NCBI RefSeq assembly: GCF_036507355.1
Contig: NZ_AP027877.1
Strand: one strand, 5' to 3'
DNA length: 64,000 nucleotides
Origin: Escherichia coli
Lineage (GTDB): Bacteria > Pseudomonadota > Gammaproteobacteria > Enterobacterales > Enterobacteriaceae
Shown here: piece by piece, positions 23,054-39,124 of the stretch
How the letters are laid out: every line of letters begins with the position of its first letter
How positions within the stretch are numbered: position 1 is the stretch's first letter
Notes under the pieces: model-generated
Told to the model about the DNA's origin: nothing
Seen by the model: the letters and a program-made list of their open reading frames with translations, nothing else
Databases searched by the model: none
Translations under genes and position numbers: made by a program

Positions 23054-24404
23054 AAACCGTGCTCCGCGTCATTCGGAAAATGCCATACAGTACCAGGGCG
23101 ATAACCGGCACCAGACCAATGGCGATGAGATTGCCGTTGAAGATTTCCAGCAGCCAGAAGCGGAACGGGTTACCGCCATCAAGGAAACTGGAAACCTGGC
23201 CGCTGGAGCCTTCGGCAAATTTGAAGTTAACGTCTTTCGCCATGCCGGTAATAAACGGTGCGATTTTAGTCGCAATCCACAGGTCGGCAATAATCACCGG
23301 GATCGCCGCCAGAACGGTGCGGAAAATATTGCCACGGCTGGCTAAAGCAATCATCGACGCCATTACCGCCAGGTTGGCAAGGTCGCCAAGCGGCAGGACT
23401 TCATTACCTGGGAGGACAAACGCGATAAAGACCGAGATTGGCGTTAGCAGCAGGGCGGTGGAGATAATCGCCGGATTACCTACGGCAACGGCGATATCCA
23501 GTCCGATATAGAGATCGTCACGGTCAGGGTATTTGGCATTGAGATACTTTTTAATGGCTTCAGACAGCGGTAATAAACCTTCCATCAGGATGCGAACCAT
23601 GCGTGGCAGGATGAACATCACACCGCCAATGCTGATGCCAAGCAGCAACACTTTTTTGAAATCGTATCCTGCAATCACGCCGAGCAGTATGCCCAGAATA
23701 GTGCCAACCATCATCGGTTCGCCGAAGATGCCAAACTTTTTCTGTACGGTTTCCGGGTCGATATGAATACGATTGAGGCCGGGGATATGGTCGATGATTT
23801 TGTCGACCAGCAGACCGACCGGGAAGAACACCACCGAAGAGAGCGTCGGCAATGAGATCCCTTCCAGTCCAAAGTATTTTTGTACCAGTGGCGCAGACCA
23901 GTCGGCGAGTTTAAGTACTACCACCGCAGCAATCGCCGCCGCCAGCAAACCAAAGAACAGGCTGCCGGTGCTGTAATAAACCAACGTACCAGCAAGGGCA
24001 AAATGCCAGTAGTTCCACATATCTACGTCAACGGTACGGGTTTTATTTAACGCCAGCATCGCCACGTTAATCAGAATGGTCAGGGGAATAACAAACGGGG
24101 CAATTGGCGAACCCCATGTAATAGCGGAAAGCGGCGGCCAGCCTAAATCTACCACCGGTAAATTAATTCCGGTGCGTTCAACCATCGCCTGGGCCGCTGG
24201 CCCGACATTGCTGGTCAGAATATCGAAAATGGCATAAATACCGACAAAACCAATGCCGACTGTTAATGACGAACGTAAGGCTTTAGCGGGTTTTACTTTA
24301 AAACAGAGAGCAAGAATAAATAACACCAACGGCAACATTACCGTCGGGCCAAATCCCAATATATATTGCACAATATTATAGAGGGTATGCGCGATATCGT
24401 TCAT
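23046..24404 (-). CDS. PTS EIIC component (galactitol family)
   Basis: ORF 23046..24434, polytopic membrane protein; likely start MNDIAHTLYN at about 24404 preceded by a GAGG RBS. Confidence 0.8.
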   Translation of the reverse strand: MNDIAHTLYNIVQYILGFGPTVMLPLVLFILALCFKVKPAKALRSSLTVGIGFVGIYAIFDILTSNVGPAAQAMVERTGINLPVVDLGWPPLSAITWGSPIAPFVIPLTILINVAMLALNKTRTVDVDMWNYWHFALAGTLVYYSTGSLFFGLLAAAIAAVVVLKLADWSAPLVQKYFGLEGISLPTLSSVVFFPVGLLVDKIIDHIPGLNRIHIDPETVQKKFGIFGEPMMVGTILGILLGVIAGYDFKKVLLLGISIGGVMFILPRMVRILMEGLLPLSEAIKKYLNAKYPDRDDLYIGLDIAVAVGNPAIISTALLLTPISVFIAFVLPGNEVLPLGDLANLAVMASMIALASRGNIFRTVLAAIPVIIADLWIATKIAPFITGMAKDVNFKFAEGSSGQVSSFLDGGNPFRFWLLEIFNGNLIAIGLVPVIALVLYGIFRMTRSTVYA

Positions 24405-24480
24405 AATAAACCTCTTTTTCAGGCGAGAGCGCACCTCGCGTTAGCGCCTGATGGAGTGGGTTGAAATTAATTATTATTAA

Positions 24481-24762
24481 TTAATTTTTAAGGATCGAAA
24501 CAATTTGCGCCAGTACTTTCTCTTCGCCAATACCGGTAATAATCGGCAAGCCGTTAACTACCGGGACGTCGAGTTCATAAGGCACTTTAGTCGTTGAGAC
24601 TACCAGTGCTACGCCATCAGTATTTCCAGGTAAAGAGGCAACGTTGGTTTGGGAATAATTGACGTTAAGACCGTGCTCTTTACAATATTCCATGACTTTT
24701 TCTGTTACCGCCGTGGATGTGGCAATACCCGTGGCGCAGACAAATAAAATGGTTTGACTCAT
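24481..24762 (-). CDS. PTS EIIB component (galactitol type)
   Basis: 93-aa ORF; MSQTILFVCATGIATS with the active-site Cys. Confidence 0.8.
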   Translation of the reverse strand: MSQTILFVCATGIATSTAVTEKVMEYCKEHGLNVNYSQTNVASLPGNTDGVALVVSTTKVPYELDVPVVNGLPIITGIGEEKVLAQIVSILKN

Positions 24763-25232
24763 ATTTCACCTCGTTCTTTCATTTTGTTTAAGATTACTGT
24801 GTGTATTTCTGTTGTTTCCATCGCAAGCAGGGCTTGCATAAAGGGTGTATCCTGAATCATTTCCATAATCCAGCCCAGGGCATTTAATTGTTTATTACTT
24901 TCGCTTAAGGCGAGCAAAAAAATCACCCTGACAGGTACGGGGTCAGGATCGCCGCCCATATCGGCAAACTCTACCGGTTCCGGCAGGATGCCGACGGCAA
25001 TTGCATTGTGCCTGACATGTTTATGGTCCGTGTGCGGAATAGCGACGCACGGTGGTTCGGTAGGCAGCCCCGTTGGGTACGTCGCCTCACGTTTCAGTAC
25101 GTGATCGGCAAAATCAGGGACGACCAGCTCGGCGGCAACCAACGGTTGCGCTAACTGACGGATGATCTGTTCAACGCTTAACCCTGCCGGAAGTCGTTGA
25201 ATATAATTTTCCTGAAAATGTATGCCTTGCAT
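24759..25232 (-). CDS. PTS EIIA component (type 2, mannitol/fructose family)
   Basis: 157-aa ORF; conserved His in AIPHTD. Confidence 0.75.
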   Translation of the reverse strand: MQGIHFQENYIQRLPAGLSVEQIIRQLAQPLVAAELVVPDFADHVLKREATYPTGLPTEPPCVAIPHTDHKHVRHNAIAVGILPEPVEFADMGGDPDPVPVRVIFLLALSESNKQLNALGWIMEMIQDTPFMQALLAMETTEIHTVILNKMKERGEI

Positions 25233-25256
25233 TTTATTCCTCTTAAAAAAGTGTAC

Positions 25257-26003
25257 TTAACTCACTTCCCGCCGTTGCAGTACGGTGCCAAGATAATATT
25301 TATTTCCTTTTAACCAGACGTTGCCAAACTCAATGGGTAAACCTCGGGAGAAAAAGACTAACTGCTCCAGATGCAAAACGGGTGCGTCTTCACTGATATC
25401 TAAAAAATGACCACGTTCATTACCAATTAATCGCGCGGCATAGCGACTTTCCGAGTAACGAATTTTTCTTTGCGACAAACTTTCTATTGTTGGAAATAAA
25501 TTATGTTGATTAAAATCGATTTCCGCAATACCGGGGCATAGCTCAATATTGATACGGTTCTCTATCAGCATCGCTTTTTCATCACCAATTGAGCGTAAGC
25601 GTTCAAGGTAAAGAATATCCTGACCGGGCGTTATTCTTAATTTCTCTGCCACATAACGATTAGCCGGTTCAATCCGTGACGTAATAACTTCAGTGGTAAA
25701 ATGTATTTTCTGGCTTTCCAGCGATTCCGCGAATGACAATAATCCTTCACCTAACGGATATGCCACGTTCTCTTTTTTGACAAATGTTCCCTTACCCTGG
25801 ACCTGTATTAACACGCCTTCTTTTACCAGTTGGGCGACCGCTTTTTTAACGGTTCCCCGACTCACTTCCAGCATATCCATAATCTGGTATTCCGAAGGAA
25901 TGCGATCGTCTTCCACCAGATCTCCGGTATAAATACTTTCTCTTATCCACTCCACCACTTGTTGATAGAGCGGTATTTGTGACGACTTACTTAATGATTT
26001 CAT
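25257..26003 (-). CDS. GntR-family transcriptional regulator (HTH plus UTRA effector domain)
   Basis: ORF 25257..26012; N-terminal winged-HTH (IPSEYQIMDMLEVSRGTVKKAVAQLVKEGVL), C-terminal UTRA-like domain; directly upstream of the PTS genes on the same strand. Confidence 0.8.
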   Translation of the reverse strand: MKSLSKSSQIPLYQQVVEWIRESIYTGDLVEDDRIPSEYQIMDMLEVSRGTVKKAVAQLVKEGVLIQVQGKGTFVKKENVAYPLGEGLLSFAESLESQKIHFTTEVITSRIEPANRYVAEKLRITPGQDILYLERLRSIGDEKAMLIENRINIELCPGIAEIDFNQHNLFPTIESLSQRKIRYSESRYAARLIGNERGHFLDISEDAPVLHLEQLVFFSRGLPIEFGNVWLKGNKYYLGTVLQRREVS

Positions 26004-26026
26004 GGCGCGCACCTGAACATTTACAG

Positions 26027-26058
26027 TTGTCTATGGACAATCATGGACAACTTCAAGC
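26027..26058 (-). promoter_or_regulatory. candidate GntR-type operator upstream of the regulator gene
   Basis: Perfect palindrome TTGTCTATGGACAA followed by a repeated TGGACAAC half-site, about 25 nt upstream of the regulator start. Confidence 0.4.
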
Positions 26059-26201
26059 GTATAGTAGGTGAACGGGAGAAAAAGAGGATCGAAGCGTCTC
26101 ACATTTTGAGGGACCAAATCGTGATCAAAAAAATGTGACGTGAGTCGATATGTGTCAGAAGTTTACTGCGCCGTAAGGAAATAACGGCGCGTTGGTAGGT
26201 G

Positions 26202-29005
<2,804 letters not shown>

Positions 29006-35308: not shown

Positions 35309-35974
35309 TTAACTCGCCTGCAAAGCGTTGATTTCGGATTTATCTGCCAGTCTTTTCAACAGCATATTGAGTAATACGCCATACATTGGCAGGAAGAAAA
35401 CGATACTGATTAACACTTTGAAACAGTAATCGACCAGCGCGATTTCCATCCAGTGTTCAGCCATAAAGGCATCCGGGCTACGCCAGAAGGCAATGAAGAA
35501 AAAGGCCAGCGTGTCGCTGACGTTACCGAACAGTGTGGACGCTGTCGGTGCCAGCCACCAGCGGCGACTCTGACGCAGGCGGTTAAAAACGTGCACGTCG
35601 AGGATCTGCCCCAGCGCGTAGGCCATGAAACTGGCGGTGGCGATACGGGCGACAAACAGGTTGAAGTGGGCGAGTGCGCCGAATCCCTGCCATGAACCCA
35701 TATAGAATAGCGACGAGATGACGTAGGAGATCAGCAACGCCGGGATCATCACCGCAAAGATGATACGACGGGCCAGCGGTGCGCCAAAAATACGCACGGT
35801 CAGGTCGGTAGCGAGAAAGATAAACGGAAAGCTAAACGCGCCCCAGGTGGTATGGAAACCAAAAATGGAGACGGGAAGCTGAACCAGATAGTTACTGGAG
35901 GTGATCACCAGCAGATGAAATAACGATAACCAGAACAACGCCTTATAGCGTTGAGTTTGCGAGAAAACGTTCAT
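35309..35974 (-). CDS. yhhQ: queuosine-precursor transporter (YhhQ family)
   Basis: 221-aa membrane ORF. Confidence 0.85.
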   Translation of the reverse strand: MNVFSQTQRYKALFWLSLFHLLVITSSNYLVQLPVSIFGFHTTWGAFSFPFIFLATDLTVRIFGAPLARRIIFAVMIPALLISYVISSLFYMGSWQGFGALAHFNLFVARIATASFMAYALGQILDVHVFNRLRQSRRWWLAPTASTLFGNVSDTLAFFFIAFWRSPDAFMAEHWMEIALVDYCFKVLISIVFFLPMYGVLLNMLLKRLADKSEINALQAS

Positions 35975-36194
35975 ATTGTACCTTTTTGATTAACCATTGG
36001 GGTGAGGGAACCCAATACGTACGACACGTCTGTTACCTTAACATAATAACGTGCTTACCCTTTTTTCGAGCCGCCGCATGATACTGCTTTACGTTGACAA
36101 TGCAATGGTTAATTTTCACGCAATCGTTAACCTGATTTGCTTACGGACTCACAGGGCGTAAACTAGCGCCGTTTTTTTATGTGATGAGAAGAAA

Positions 36195-36440
36195 ATGACC
36201 GATCTCTTTTCCAGCCCTGACCACACACTCGACGCACTTGGCCTGCGCTGCCCGGAACCCGTAATGATGGTGCGCAAAACAGTGCGCAATATGCAGCCAG
36301 GTGAAACGTTGCTGATTATTGCTGACGATCCGGCGACGACCCGCGATATTCCTGGGTTTTGTACCTTTATGGAACACGAACTGGTTGCTAAAGAGACGGA
36401 TGGACTGCCTTATCGCTATTTGATTCGTAAAGGTGGTTAA
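36195..36440 (+). CDS. tusA: sulfur carrier protein TusA
   Basis: 81-aa ORF with CPxP motif ([15 protein letters not shown]). Confidence 0.92.
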
Positions 36441-36454
36441 GGTGGATCACGGAC

Positions 36455-36565
36455 TGTTACCCTAACCCTCTCCCCAGAGGGGCGAGGGGACCGATCGCAC
36501 TCAATGTTGCTGCTTGAAACCGGTACGTAGGACGGATAAGGCGTTCACGCCGCATCCGGCAAGCA
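36455..36565. repeat. REP-type intergenic palindromic repeats
   Basis: CCCTCTCCCCAGAGGGGCGAGGGGA palindromic unit followed by GTAGGACGGATAAGGCGTTCACGCCGCATCCGGCA, a typical REP. Confidence 0.6.
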
Positions 36566-36584
36566 AGTGTAATGGAATACACAA

Positions 36585-36893
36585 ATGGATTATTTAATTC
36601 CTGTTTGCCTGGGATTGCTGGGATTGTTCGCGATGCTCGCCCCCAATTGGCTGATGCCTGTTTTAATCGCCGTGGGGGGATGGCTGGGGGTACTTGCCTG
36701 TGGTTGGCTCTGGCTAATGCTATTTTTACCTTTACTCAACGGCGTCGGGCTTGCTTATGCCCTGTGGTTGATGTTCAAAAGGCCATCATTCACGTCCCGC
36801 TTGGTTGCTACATGTTGTGTTATCTCCGTCATTCTGATGTTAGCGCTTTATTATGCTTTCCTGACCATGCCGCCGTTCCCGCCTCAGCACTAA
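36585..36893 (+). CDS. hypothetical small hydrophobic protein (unconfirmed ORF)
   Basis: 102-aa open frame, almost entirely hydrophobic (2-3 predicted TM helices); no obvious SD; lies between the REP and the zntA stop. Confidence 0.3.
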   Translation: MDYLIPVCLGLLGLFAMLAPNWLMPVLIAVGGWLGVLACGWLWLMLFLPLLNGVGLAYALWLMFKRPSFTSRLVATCCVISVILMLALYYAFLTMPPFPPQH

Positions 36894-36925
36894 GCCTGAT
36901 AGCCAGAGGCTATCAGGCAACACCT

Positions 36926-39124
36926 TTACTTCCTGCGCAACAACCTTAACGCATTCGCCGTCACCAGCACCGTCGCACCCGTATCTGCCAGCACCGCCAG
37001 CCACAGTCCGGTCATCCCCAACAGCGTCGTGACGAGGAAGATCCCTTTCAGCCCCAGTGCAATAGTGATGTTCTGACGGATATTAGCGTGAGTGGCGCGC
37101 GCCAGTTCAACCATTTGCACCAGACCGCGCAGGTGGTTATGGGTTAATGCCGCGTCGGCGGTTTCCAGTGCGACGTCTGTGCCGCTACCCATTGCAATCC
37201 CAATGGCGGCAGCTTTCATCGCTGGCGCGTCGTTAATACCGTCCCCGACCATCGCCAGCGGCGCATGTTGATTCAGCTCGGTCACCGCTTTAACTTTATC
37301 TTCCGGCAACAGGCCCGCTTTAAATTCCAGCCCCAGTTCCCCGGCGATTGCCGCCGCGGCGCGTGGATTATCGCCGGTGAGGATCACTCCTTTGACGCCC
37401 AGCGCGTTCAGTTCACTGATGGCAGTTGCAGCATCGGCGCGCAGAGTATCCTGCAATGCAATGATACCCAGCACGTCATCGTTACGTACTACCAGCACTA
37501 CCGTTTGCCCGGCGCTTTCCAGCTCGTTAATTAAACCAGCAAATGCATCAGCGGGATGTTTCCCGGCAGCGCATATCAACACGCGCTCACCGTTAACCTG
37601 TGCTTCAATGCCAGACCCGACCAGCGCCCGCTGTGATTCGGCGGCGGGAATGGCGAGTGCAGCAACCTGTGCTTCGCGCACGATGGCCTGCGCCAGTGGA
37701 TGCGTCGCGCCTTGCTCGACCGCCGCCGCCAGTGTCAGCAGTTCAGATTCACTAATACCCGTTGCCGGATGAATCGCGGTAACGCGCGGTTTACCGACGG
37801 TCAGCGTACCGGTTTTATCAAACGCCACTTGGGTAACACGACCTAGCTGCTCCAGCGCCGCACCGCCTTTAATTAACGCCCCACGACGTGCCGCTGCTGC
37901 CAGCCCGGAGGTAATCGCCGCGGGCGTGGAGATAACTAACGCACACGGGCAGCCAATCAGCAGCAGCGTCAGCCCTTTATAAATCCACTCTTGCCAGCTG
38001 GCGGCAAACAGCAGCGGCGGCACCAGCGTTACCAGCAGGGCGACGGCCATAATCGCTGGCGTATAAATACGGCTGAAACGGTCGATAAACCGCTCAATGG
38101 GGGCGCGGCGCTCTTCGGCTTCTTCGATCAGTTTCAGAATCCGGTCAATGGCGCTGGCACCCGGTTCTGACAGCACTTCCAGCGTTACCAGACGGTCTAC
38201 GCTGGTGGCTCCTGCAGGAACTTTATCGCCCGTTGCGCGCTCCACCGGAATGGATTCGCCGGTCAGGGCGCTTTCATCAAAACTGGCAAAGGGCGAGAGC
38301 AGTTTACCGTCGGCAGGCAAACGCCCGCCCGCCGCAACTTCAATCACATCGCCAGGCCGCAGGCTGTTAATCGCCACCTCTTCCCGCTCACCGTTACGCA
38401 GGCGCGTGGCGGTTTCTGGTTTCAGCGCCATTAACGCGCTAACGCCCTGACGCGCGCGGCTGGCGGCCCAGCCTTCCAGTCGTTCACCAATCAAAAACAG
38501 CAGCAACACCATCGCAGCTTCAGCCGTTGCGCCAATAAACAGCGCACCAATAGCAGCTACGCTCATTAACGTTTCAATGGCGAAGTAACTGCCTGATTTG
38601 ATCAGCCGTAATGCCTGACGAGCAATCGGGTACAGCCCAACCAGCGTGGTCGCGATAAACGCCAGTTGCCCGAACGGATGATTGAACTGCTCCAGACCCC
38701 AGCTGATTACCATCATCACGATAAGCGTAATCAGCGACAAATTCTCTTTCAGGCGTGATGTTTGCGGTTCTTCGGCGGACTGTTCATCGCGCAGGGAATA
38801 GCCCGCTTTTTGCACCGCAGATTCAACTTGTGCACGGATGTCATTGTCGGCATCAACCACCAGTTTTTCGGTGGCGAACAGTACCTGCACCTGATTCACG
38901 CCTGCAAGCTGGCGCACGGCATTTTCTACCTTGCGCGCACAGGCGGCGCAGTCCATGCCGCTGACTTTCCAGCTATAGCGGGTGCCGGAGACGTTTTCAG
39001 AGAGCGTTGGCGTGCTGGAACATGCGCCGTCGCAGCAACAGTCGTTGGCGTTCTGTACCGTGGTTAGCGGTTTGAACGCAGCAAATTGAGGGGCTTTCTT
39101 GCCGTGATTGTCAGGAGTCGACAT
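36926..39124 (-). CDS. zntA: Zn/Cd/Pb-exporting P-type ATPase
   Basis: 732-aa ORF with N-terminal metal-binding GMDCAAC, CPC transmembrane motif and DKTGTLT phosphorylation motif. Confidence 0.95.
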   Translation of the reverse strand: MSTPDNHGKKAPQFAAFKPLTTVQNANDCCCDGACSSTPTLSENVSGTRYSWKVSGMDCAACARKVENAVRQLAGVNQVQVLFATEKLVVDADNDIRAQVESAVQKAGYSLRDEQSAEEPQTSRLKENLSLITLIVMMVISWGLEQFNHPFGQLAFIATTLVGLYPIARQALRLIKSGSYFAIETLMSVAAIGALFIGATAEAAMVLLLFLIGERLEGWAASRARQGVSALMALKPETATRLRNGEREEVAINSLRPGDVIEVAAGGRLPADGKLLSPFASFDESALTGESIPVERATGDKVPAGATSVDRLVTLEVLSEPGASAIDRILKLIEEAEERRAPIERFIDRFSRIYTPAIMAVALLVTLVPPLLFAASWQEWIYKGLTLLLIGCPCALVISTPAAITSGLAAAARRGALIKGGAALEQLGRVTQVAFDKTGTLTVGKPRVTAIHPATGISESELLTLAAAVEQGATHPLAQAIVREAQVAALAIPAAESQRALVGSGIEAQVNGERVLICAAGKHPADAFAGLINELESAGQTVVLVVRNDDVLGIIALQDTLRADAATAISELNALGVKGVILTGDNPRAAAAIAGELGLEFKAGLLPEDKVKAVTELNQHAPLAMVGDGINDAPAMKAAAIGIAMGSGTDVALETADAALTHNHLRGLVQMVELARATHANIRQNITIALGLKGIFLVTTLLGMTGLWLAVLADTGATVLVTANALRLLRRK

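Follow-up and report, generated by a model that had tools for sequence, protein, structure and literature searches.

Does the gap between tusA and zntA in Escherichia coli hold the gene of a small membrane protein, or an open reading frame (ORF) of no consequence? The question is raised by a window of 64,000 nucleotides of E. coli DNA (assembly GCF_036507355.1, contig NZ_AP027877.1), in which an ORF of 102 codons lies between a repetitive extragenic palindromic (REP) repeat and the end of zntA. The first-pass annotation had described a strongly hydrophobic frame with two to three predicted helices and no clear Shine-Dalgarno (SD) sequence, possibly a missed small membrane protein and possibly spurious. 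Its position, strand and length (36585..36893, + strand, 102 aa, ATG start) agree with the ORF list, and the translation reads MDYLIPVCLGLLGLFAMLAPNWLMPVLIAVGGWLGVLACGWLWLMLFLPLLNGVGLAYALWLMFKRPSFTSRLVATCCVISVILMLALYYAFLTMPPFPPQH. On the comparative evidence given below, the ORF is probably a real gene for a small inner-membrane protein, which would originally have been co-transcribed and translated with tusA, and which in E. coli appears to be accessory and decaying.

Conservation and selection in the 102-codon frame

Comparative conservation, together with an analysis of synonymous and non-synonymous change, had been named in the first-pass annotation among the ways to check the ORF, and both came out in its favour, as the frame is kept in close and distant relatives and the synonymous excess lies in the 102-aa frame. 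A protein search returned 36 clusters, all from Escherichia, and a scan of one genome per species gave five loci, i.e. those of Escherichia sp. E1V33 (98%), a divergent ‘E. coli’, Escherichia sp. MOD1-EC7003, the E. albertii type strain and E. whittamii. In addition to the window, the 102-codon frame was intact in 14 of the 15 sampled Escherichia loci with the segment (L001, L002, L004–L015), which include E. albertii, E. whittamii, E. marmotae and other Escherichia lineages; the exception, an E. marmotae locus (L016), has a deletion of 1 nt in a G-run. The order of tusA, the ORF and the convergent zntA was constant in all 12 context look-ups within Escherichia.

Selection was assessed by counting substitutions on a neighbour-joining tree with parsimony reconstruction, using 13 unique sequences with 81 variable nucleotide sites. 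Over the whole ORF, 60 synonymous and 70 non-synonymous changes were counted against an expected synonymous fraction of 0.30, which corresponds to a non-synonymous to synonymous ratio (omega) of ~0.50 (p=7.9e-5). For codons 47–102 omega was ~0.35 (p=7e-6), and for codons 1–46 ~0.8 (p=0.27). The variable sites were distributed 26/16/39 over the three codon positions, and the pairwise synonymous distance (dS) of the ORF reached 0.34. The other two forward frames gave omega values of 1.0 and 2.2, and the antisense frames 1.1 and 2.4, except for 0.60 in the one with a shared wobble position. The weak SD is overlapped by an out-of-frame ATG, from which another frame, of 125 aa (36572..36949, + strand), is open; it was rejected as a gene on its omega of at least 1 and the stop codons that arise in relatives, and the antisense frames were rejected on the same grounds, save that omega was 0.60 in the wobble-sharing one.

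The N-terminal half carries a constraint of another kind. Only 3 of the 43 inferred replacements of apolar residues in codons 1–46 led to a polar residue, proline or a stop, as against 15.3 expected (p=1.5e-5). A tree-free count gave 2 of 30, where a fraction of 0.30 was expected (binomial p ~0.002), and its two exceptions, W41E and L42P, both from E. albertii, sit where the short homologues from other genera have a polar loop. Together, the synonymous excess and the hydrophobic-only replacements suggest translation of the frame along its entire length into a membrane protein, whose C-terminal core is constrained in sequence and whose N-terminal half is constrained for hydrophobicity only.

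Homologues outside Escherichia

An exhaustive HMMER search with the Escherichia profile against 1.84 billion representative proteins identified P0039 (83 aa, E=4e-6) and P0042 (84 aa, E=6.5e-4), the latter a cluster of Huaxiibacter chinensis and Lelliottia amnigena, and a word-indexed profile search added a third relative, P0067. Overall, these distant homologues are 83–90 aa long, with ~35% identity. All three genes are located 36–37 nt 3′ of tusA on the same strand (for P0067 with the gene start placed at an upstream ATG), and in the short forms a strong SD, AAGGAAGG or AAGGA (within AAGGAAT), lies 6–10 nt before the ATG. The block from SD to ATG is itself homologous, CAAAGGAATGC in the short forms corresponding to ATGGAAT(A/G)CA in Escherichia, and in Escherichia E4742 and SCPM-O-B-8794 extra upstream sequence supplies AAGGAAT.

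With hhalign, Escherichia columns 44–102 were matched to columns 27–86 of the short forms (probability 98.1%, E=1.2e-13), and the matched region is the one under the strongest purifying selection. For the N-terminal homology of MDYLIPVCLGLLGL and MKYLVPLFLSLVGW, none of 1000 shuffles scored as high. In the alignment of long and short forms, the C-terminal core of the family is present as P-x-x-N-G-x-G-L, followed by a basic loop with S-R and by S-V-x-x-M-x-x-L-Y. Omega between two short-form loci was 0.44 (26 differences), compared to 0.03–0.15 for the neighbouring genes. Judged by these alignments, the family is old, fast-evolving and patchy, and linkage to tusA, the one constant neighbour of the small ORF across all genera, is its one constant feature. 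In the Huaxiibacter/Lelliottia type, dctPQM genes for a tripartite ATP-independent periplasmic (TRAP) transporter are situated as an operon between the small gene and zntA (L018 4423–7221, L021 4410–7208), so that the family does not have zntA as a constant neighbour.

Predicted membrane architecture

The strong hydrophobicity of the product was evident from a grand average of hydropathy (GRAVY) of 1.35, the only charged or ionisable residues being D2, K65, R66, R72 and H102. The number of helices had been set too low, since hydropathy and the alignment to the short homologues indicate four membrane segments, at about residues 3–19, 22–39, 44–64 and 73–95, and a loop of charge +3. The AlphaFold2 model, built on an 18-sequence alignment, was all helical (predicted local distance difference test score, pLDDT, 72.8; predicted template modelling score, pTM, 0.50) with helices at 4–18, 21–65 and 69–94, and it fuses two of the hydropathy segments into a single helix of 45 residues.

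The short forms are ~19–20 residues shorter on the N-terminal side, and residues 1–20 and 21–45 of the Escherichia protein each resemble the first helix of the short forms. A duplication of the N-terminal helix in Escherichia is possible, the self-similarity of residues 1–20 to 21–40 being marginal (p~0.025). The family core would comprise three helices and the Escherichia form four. The conserved core of codons 44–102 (36714..36890, + strand) spans the last two of the membrane helices, with the N-G-x-G motif, the KRPSFTSR basic loop and FPxQH at the C-terminus. Residues P25, G32, W33, P49, G53, G55, M63, S71, R72, S81, M85 and L88 are invariant or nearly so; no invariant cysteine, conserved acidic residue or other catalytic residue was found in the alignment of long and short forms.

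Following the positive-inside rule, positively charged loops are cytoplasmic. By this rule the KRPSFTSR loop (K65-R66…R72) is predicted to face the cytoplasm, which would place both termini of the four-helix Escherichia form in the periplasm. The N-terminus of the short forms would be cytoplasmic, because their sequence begins with M-K/R, and the predicted change of topology fits the replacement of K/R by D at residue 2.

Carriage, annotation and alleles

The segment was present in 317 of 5426 complete E. coli genomes, e.g. in O145:H28 strains and SMS-3-5, always as one chromosomal copy. The common allele, as in O157:H7 FRIK944, is without ~415 bp corresponding to about 36511–36925 of the window, and retains the G-rich repeat next to tusA. 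The tusA–zntA gap of K-12 is likewise short, according to the distances tabulated in PMC5100583.

The suggestion of an unannotated, missed gene did not hold, as the Prokaryotic Genome Annotation Pipeline (PGAP) already calls the ORF, whereas that of a possible small membrane protein gained support from the conservation and the frame-specific synonymous excess. The E. coli records that were inspected carry the frame as an intact 102-aa coding sequence (CDS) labelled ‘hypothetical protein’ (WP_000385059.1, WP_000385055.1 and WP_000385056.1; UniProt A0A066QZ38_ECOLX), and these RefSeq proteins are orthologues at the identical position with 86–97% protein identity. The same product name was found in all 60 rows sampled from the 317 carrier genomes, and the exact window protein occurred on 166 contigs in public protein collections. 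The ORF is already annotated, then, though uncharacterised, and its unfamiliar look is due to the common E. coli allele, which is without the segment. No mention of the gene was found in the literature searched by accession, locus tag and gene pair.

Allelic variation within Escherichia is partly in frame. A tandem repeat of 9 bp (CTGGGATTG, two copies at 36609..36626, + strand, inside codons 9–14) varies in copy number without loss of the frame, P0001, of 105 aa, having an extra LGL unit and P0004, of 99 aa, lacking one. The alleles P0023, P0025, P0028 and P0029 begin in the 125-aa frame and enter the 102-aa frame via indels. Two homopolymer runs were observed in the ORF, G6 at 36674–36679 of the window and, in relatives, T7 at ~36719–36727 (in the window CTATTTTTA). 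They coincide with frameshifted or shortened database alleles (L016, P0032, P0035), for which slippage and sequencing error are both possible.

The locus was also considered as a mobile element, and this origin was rejected on its single copy per genome, the synteny of the distant homologues and the absence of a match to the locus in the phage collection. The sole match in the plasmid collection was a 4.9-Mb E. coli record (PLSDB NZ_CP141089.1), which carries the locus and is evidently a chromosome filed as a plasmid.

Gene, relic or non-coding segment

A number of observations weigh against a functional gene, and most of them are shared with the alternative of a fading relic. This holds that the gene was once functional, and may still be so in the Huaxiibacter/Lelliottia types, but that window-type E. 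coli has ceased to express it or to benefit from it, the frame being open only through the short time elapsed and an A-poor composition with T-rich second positions, which makes stops rare. The initial remark that the ORF could be spurious keeps some force as to function in this strain, in which the translation signals are weak. In the window, 144 nt of structured repeats (G-rich and REP) separate tusA from the ORF, and the initiation region ATGGAATACACAA (36572..36584, + strand) offers only a weak SD, GGA at 36574–36576, 8 nt before the ATG, in line with the first impression, and overlapped by the out-of-frame ATG at 36572. A scan of 35900–37100 on either strand found no consensus sigma-70 promoter. 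The ORF is absent from 5109 of the 5426 complete E. coli genomes (~94%) and from E. fergusonii, and frameshifted (P0023, P0025, P0028, P0029, L016) and shortened alleles (P0027, P0030, P0032–36) exist, some of them at the G6 and T7 runs.

The length of the ORF does not help: when the 485-nt gap was shuffled 5000 times with dinucleotides preserved, 13.6% of the shuffles held an ORF of at least 102 aa, a frequency due to the A-poor composition of the segment; length alone being not significant, the coding claim rests on the comparison with relatives. There the constraint is weak, with a mean pairwise Nei-Gojobori omega of 0.41, compared to 0.02–0.04 in the neighbours (tusA 0.036, yhhQ 0.018, zntA 0.035), and in codons 1–46 the tree-based value is the ~0.8 given above. 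The sample of intact sequences was moreover partly ascertained via protein predictions, which favours open frames, and the product had no homology to any characterised protein in Pfam, NCBIfam, PHROGs, PADLOC or the PDB (sequence and fold).

Still, we consider the relic unlikely. The synonymous excess and the hydrophobic-only replacements come from substitutions within Escherichia itself; the frame has stayed intact in 14 of 15 loci at pairwise dS of up to 0.34; and the inspected E. coli records hold the intact 102-aa CDS, with a CDS product listed in 60 of 60 sampled rows. Set against spuriousness, the comparative evidence favours a gene.

It is very improbable that the real product is the C-terminal core only, a two-helix protein of ~58 aa starting at Met45 (36717) with the 44 upstream codons as a leader. 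One E. albertii record (P0030) is annotated in this way, codons 44–102 hold most of the purifying selection and of the homology across genera, and P0028 and P0029 exchange the whole N-terminal half for another reading frame while the core stays in frame. However, no SD-like sequence precedes Met45 (tggctctggctaATG), and the frame of the core in P0028 would not be that of the Met45 codon. Homology to the short forms also extends to the N-terminus, start codon and SD block of the 102-aa form, and the N-terminal half is kept hydrophobic.

Least credible of all is that the segment is non-coding (tusA 3′ untranslated region, small RNA or terminator region with a conserved RNA structure), or that the 125-aa frame is the gene, for although a stable hairpin follows the ORF (36894–36918), a weak REP-derived Rfam match exists and the 125-aa frame is open in the window, the substitutions follow a three-base periodicity, their synonymous excess is found only in the 102-aa frame and the wobble-sharing antisense, the other forward frames have omega values of 1.0–2.2 and gain stops in relatives, no Rfam family reaches threshold in the segment, and amino-acid homology persists across genera at ~35% identity where DNA no longer aligns.

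Comparison with known families and systems

The database searches were negative throughout. No match was significant in Pfam, the best being PAP2_3 (E=0.99) and CapC (E=0.22); the best in NCBIfam reached 13.5 bits against a cut-off of 95, and PHROGs and PADLOC gave no matches to the ORF product. Foldseek against the PDB returned helical repeats of Fis1 and 14-3-3 (best E 1.4), which were judged meaningless, and all matches of the PDB sequence profile search had E>1.

The only named family to appear in two independent searches was the antiporter subunit MrpF/PhaF (NCBIfam PRK12599, E=0.09; PDB 6u8y_B, E=1.9; residues ~46–93), which with ~85–90 aa and three helices is similar in size and helix count. 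Membership was rejected on the 13.5 bits against the cut-off, on the neighbours, which are tusA, zntA, DUF2004 or dctPQM, and on the absence of mrp/pha genes from the locus gene lists; the matches are most simply explained by shared hydrophobic composition. A four-helix transporter of the small multidrug resistance (SMR, EmrE-like) type was rejected as well, there being no PF00893 match and, in place of the membrane-embedded glutamate of SMR helix 1, no glutamate at all in the window protein, whose only acidic residue is D2. So was a type I toxin-like peptide. Such peptides have fewer than ~60 aa, one helix and an antisense RNA that overlaps them, and are often multicopy, whereas the product has 102 aa and four hydrophobic segments, occurs at one place per genome and has no promoter-like site on either strand, although an antisense RNA may exist.

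Closer in character are the small inner-membrane accessory subunits and modulators, e.g. KdpF of KdpFABC, MgtS and MgtR acting on MgtA, and AcrZ acting on AcrB, which mostly have fewer than 50 aa and one helix. The ORF product resembles them in being small, nearly all hydrophobic, devoid of catalytic residues and fast-evolving, with small-residue and polar motifs inside helices, and the ORF likewise lies near transport and metabolic genes (the convergent zntA for a P-type ATPase; yhhQ two genes away). Unlike them, however, the family has 83–102 aa and three to four helices and no sequence similarity to them, and its constant neighbour encodes no transporter but TusA, a soluble sulfur carrier.

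A second point of comparison is provided by the membrane partners of TusA-family proteins. DsrE2 is paired with TusA in sulfur oxidisers. YeeE/YedE, of thiosulfate uptake, is paired with the TusA-family protein YeeD (PMC13047784). As in YeeE-YeeD and DsrE2-TusA, the ORF has a TusA-family gene directly adjoining that of a polytopic membrane protein on the same strand. YeeE/YedE, however, has ~350 aa, ~9–10 helices, conserved cysteines and a Pfam family of its own, whereas the ORF product has 83–102 aa, three to four helices, no Pfam match and no invariant cysteine; membership in this transporter family was rejected on its small size, the lack of a Pfam match and the lack of an invariant cysteine column. 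Unlike in those pairs, furthermore, TusA of E. coli functions in strains without the small protein.

Proposed role and apparent erosion of the gene

Returning to the preferred reading of a real small inner-membrane protein gene, most likely it was inherited vertically from the Escherichia ancestor, as far as can be judged from the sequences. It would be the distal cistron of the tusA transcript, this arrangement being the most likely because the short forms combine a 36–37-nt spacer with a strong SD. The product may work through helix-helix contacts with another protein, one of the membrane or recruited to it, as whose accessory or modulatory subunit it would serve. Such a role would be more likely than catalysis or autonomous transport because the conserved features (P49, N52-G53-x-G55, S71-R72, S81, M85) are membrane-embedded or interfacial and none is catalytic. 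Candidate partners are TusA, by gene linkage, and YhhQ or ZntA, by proximity.

In Escherichia the gene is dispensable and appears to be eroding. Two repeat elements now stand between tusA and the ORF, the SD has been reduced to GGA, and the N-terminal half is held only for hydrophobicity; frameshift alleles are found at homopolymers, and the gene is gone from most E. coli and from E. fergusonii.

A more specific role, that of a dedicated membrane partner which would bring TusA, the sulfur carrier, to the inner membrane or regulate it there, in analogy to YeeE-YeeD or DsrE2-TusA, is doubtful and has a low probability in our view. The invariant adjacency to tusA across genera is the sole observation in its favour; against it stand the absence of any conserved cysteine and the many E. 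coli that do without the gene.

Flanking features and history of the locus

The local gene order is yhhQ (35309–35974, − strand), tusA (36195..36440, + strand), the 485-nt gap, and the convergent zntA (36926..39124, − strand). The tusA ORF encodes the sulfurtransferase TusA of 81 aa, is annotated in the homologous E. coli loci and has PF01206 in every related locus. The zntA gene encodes the Zn/Cd/Pb P-type ATPase, and its stop codon lies 33 nt after that of the ORF.

Within the gap, a G/C-rich repeated element (CCCTAACCCTCTCCCCAGAGGGGCGAGGGGACCG, 36457..36500) is located just 3′ of tusA. It is kept in E. coli without the ORF, and aligns at 51 of 54 positions with the tusA–zntA gap of O157:H7. 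A putative G-quadruplex-hairpin element has been tabulated between zntA and tusA of K-12 (PMC5100583), and by position and G-richness the element of the window may be the same. The REP-type palindromic repeat (GTAGGACGGATAAGGCGTTCACGCCGCATCCGGCAAG, 36527..36565) lies directly 5′ of the ORF, at the left edge of the segment that is absent in most E. coli. It was accompanied by a sub-threshold Rfam match to the REP-derived naRNA4 (36530–36601, 32.7 bits against a gathering score of 59.5), and a query containing it matches many places per genome. In some relatives a different sequence occupies the REP position; conservation in Escherichia starts at the initiation block 36572..36584, and the sequence further 5′ is wholly different.

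The hairpin between the convergent stop codons (36894..36918), immediately after the ORF stop, has a perfect stem of 11 bp and a loop of 3 nt, with a folding free energy (dG) of −20.6 kcal/mol and z=−4.45 on the + strand. It is kept in all loci without DUF2004, and is absent in E. albertii and MOD1-EC7003. The terminator scan did not report it because it has no U-tract; despite this, a role in stabilising or terminating the 3′ ends of the two convergent transcripts is probable. REP, ORF and hairpin together make up the ~415-bp segment (36511..36925) that a global alignment with O157:H7 FRIK944 delimits as missing from the common allele.

Over 36100–37100 the allele of the window is closest to that of Escherichia sp. 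E1V33 (98%), followed by E. coli UTME-3 and O145:H28 (96.5–97.5%). The flanking ends of tusA and zntA are only 91–93% identical to most E. coli, whereas 20000–28000 of the window is 95–99% identical to most E. coli and 99.3% to several chromosomes. The difference suggests recombinational import at the tusA–zntA locus.

The contents of the gap vary among lineages. E. albertii, Escherichia sp. MOD1-EC7003 and the enterobacterial contig L017, which carries one of the distant homologues, have the small ORF and, before zntA, a convergent DUF2004 gene (162–165 aa), in the order tusA > ORF > < DUF2004 < zntA; the DUF2004 protein of L017 is 63% identical to that of E. albertii. E. fergusonii has DUF2004 only between tusA and zntA, with no trace of the small ORF. 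The window type, E. marmotae and E. whittamii have the small ORF and the hairpin only, and most E. coli have neither the small ORF nor DUF2004. The DUF2004 gene (162–188 aa overall) was observed at L007 3369–3866 (−), L006 3378–3872 (−), L017 688–1176 (−) and L024 2501–3067 (+), and is absent from the window, where only the hairpin is found at that position. The simplest reading of these arrangements would be an ancestral order of tusA, small gene, DUF2004 and zntA, followed by independent losses. In E. fergusonii GCA_003382705.1 (L024 264–2464), zntA was called as two genes of 468 and 218 aa, which could be due to a frameshift, a pseudogene or an assembly error.

Significance

The importance of the finding is modest, because nothing points to a new mechanism. 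It adds one more uncharacterised, Pfam-less family of small membrane proteins to the Enterobacteriaceae, which has escaped the experimental surveys of small proteins because the common E. coli allele (O157:H7, apparently also K-12) is without the gene. Its stepwise loss, from the full locus in E. albertii, through the ORF alone in E. marmotae, E. whittamii, other lineages and ~6% of E. coli, to nothing in the rest, forms a compact natural series on the decay of small accessory membrane genes. The fixed position behind tusA gives a concrete, testable hypothesis. Were the product a membrane partner of TusA, sulfur trafficking (tRNA thiolation, molybdenum cofactor synthesis) would be tied to a membrane process, and the recurrent loss of the gene in Escherichia would point to a rewired sulfur pathway.

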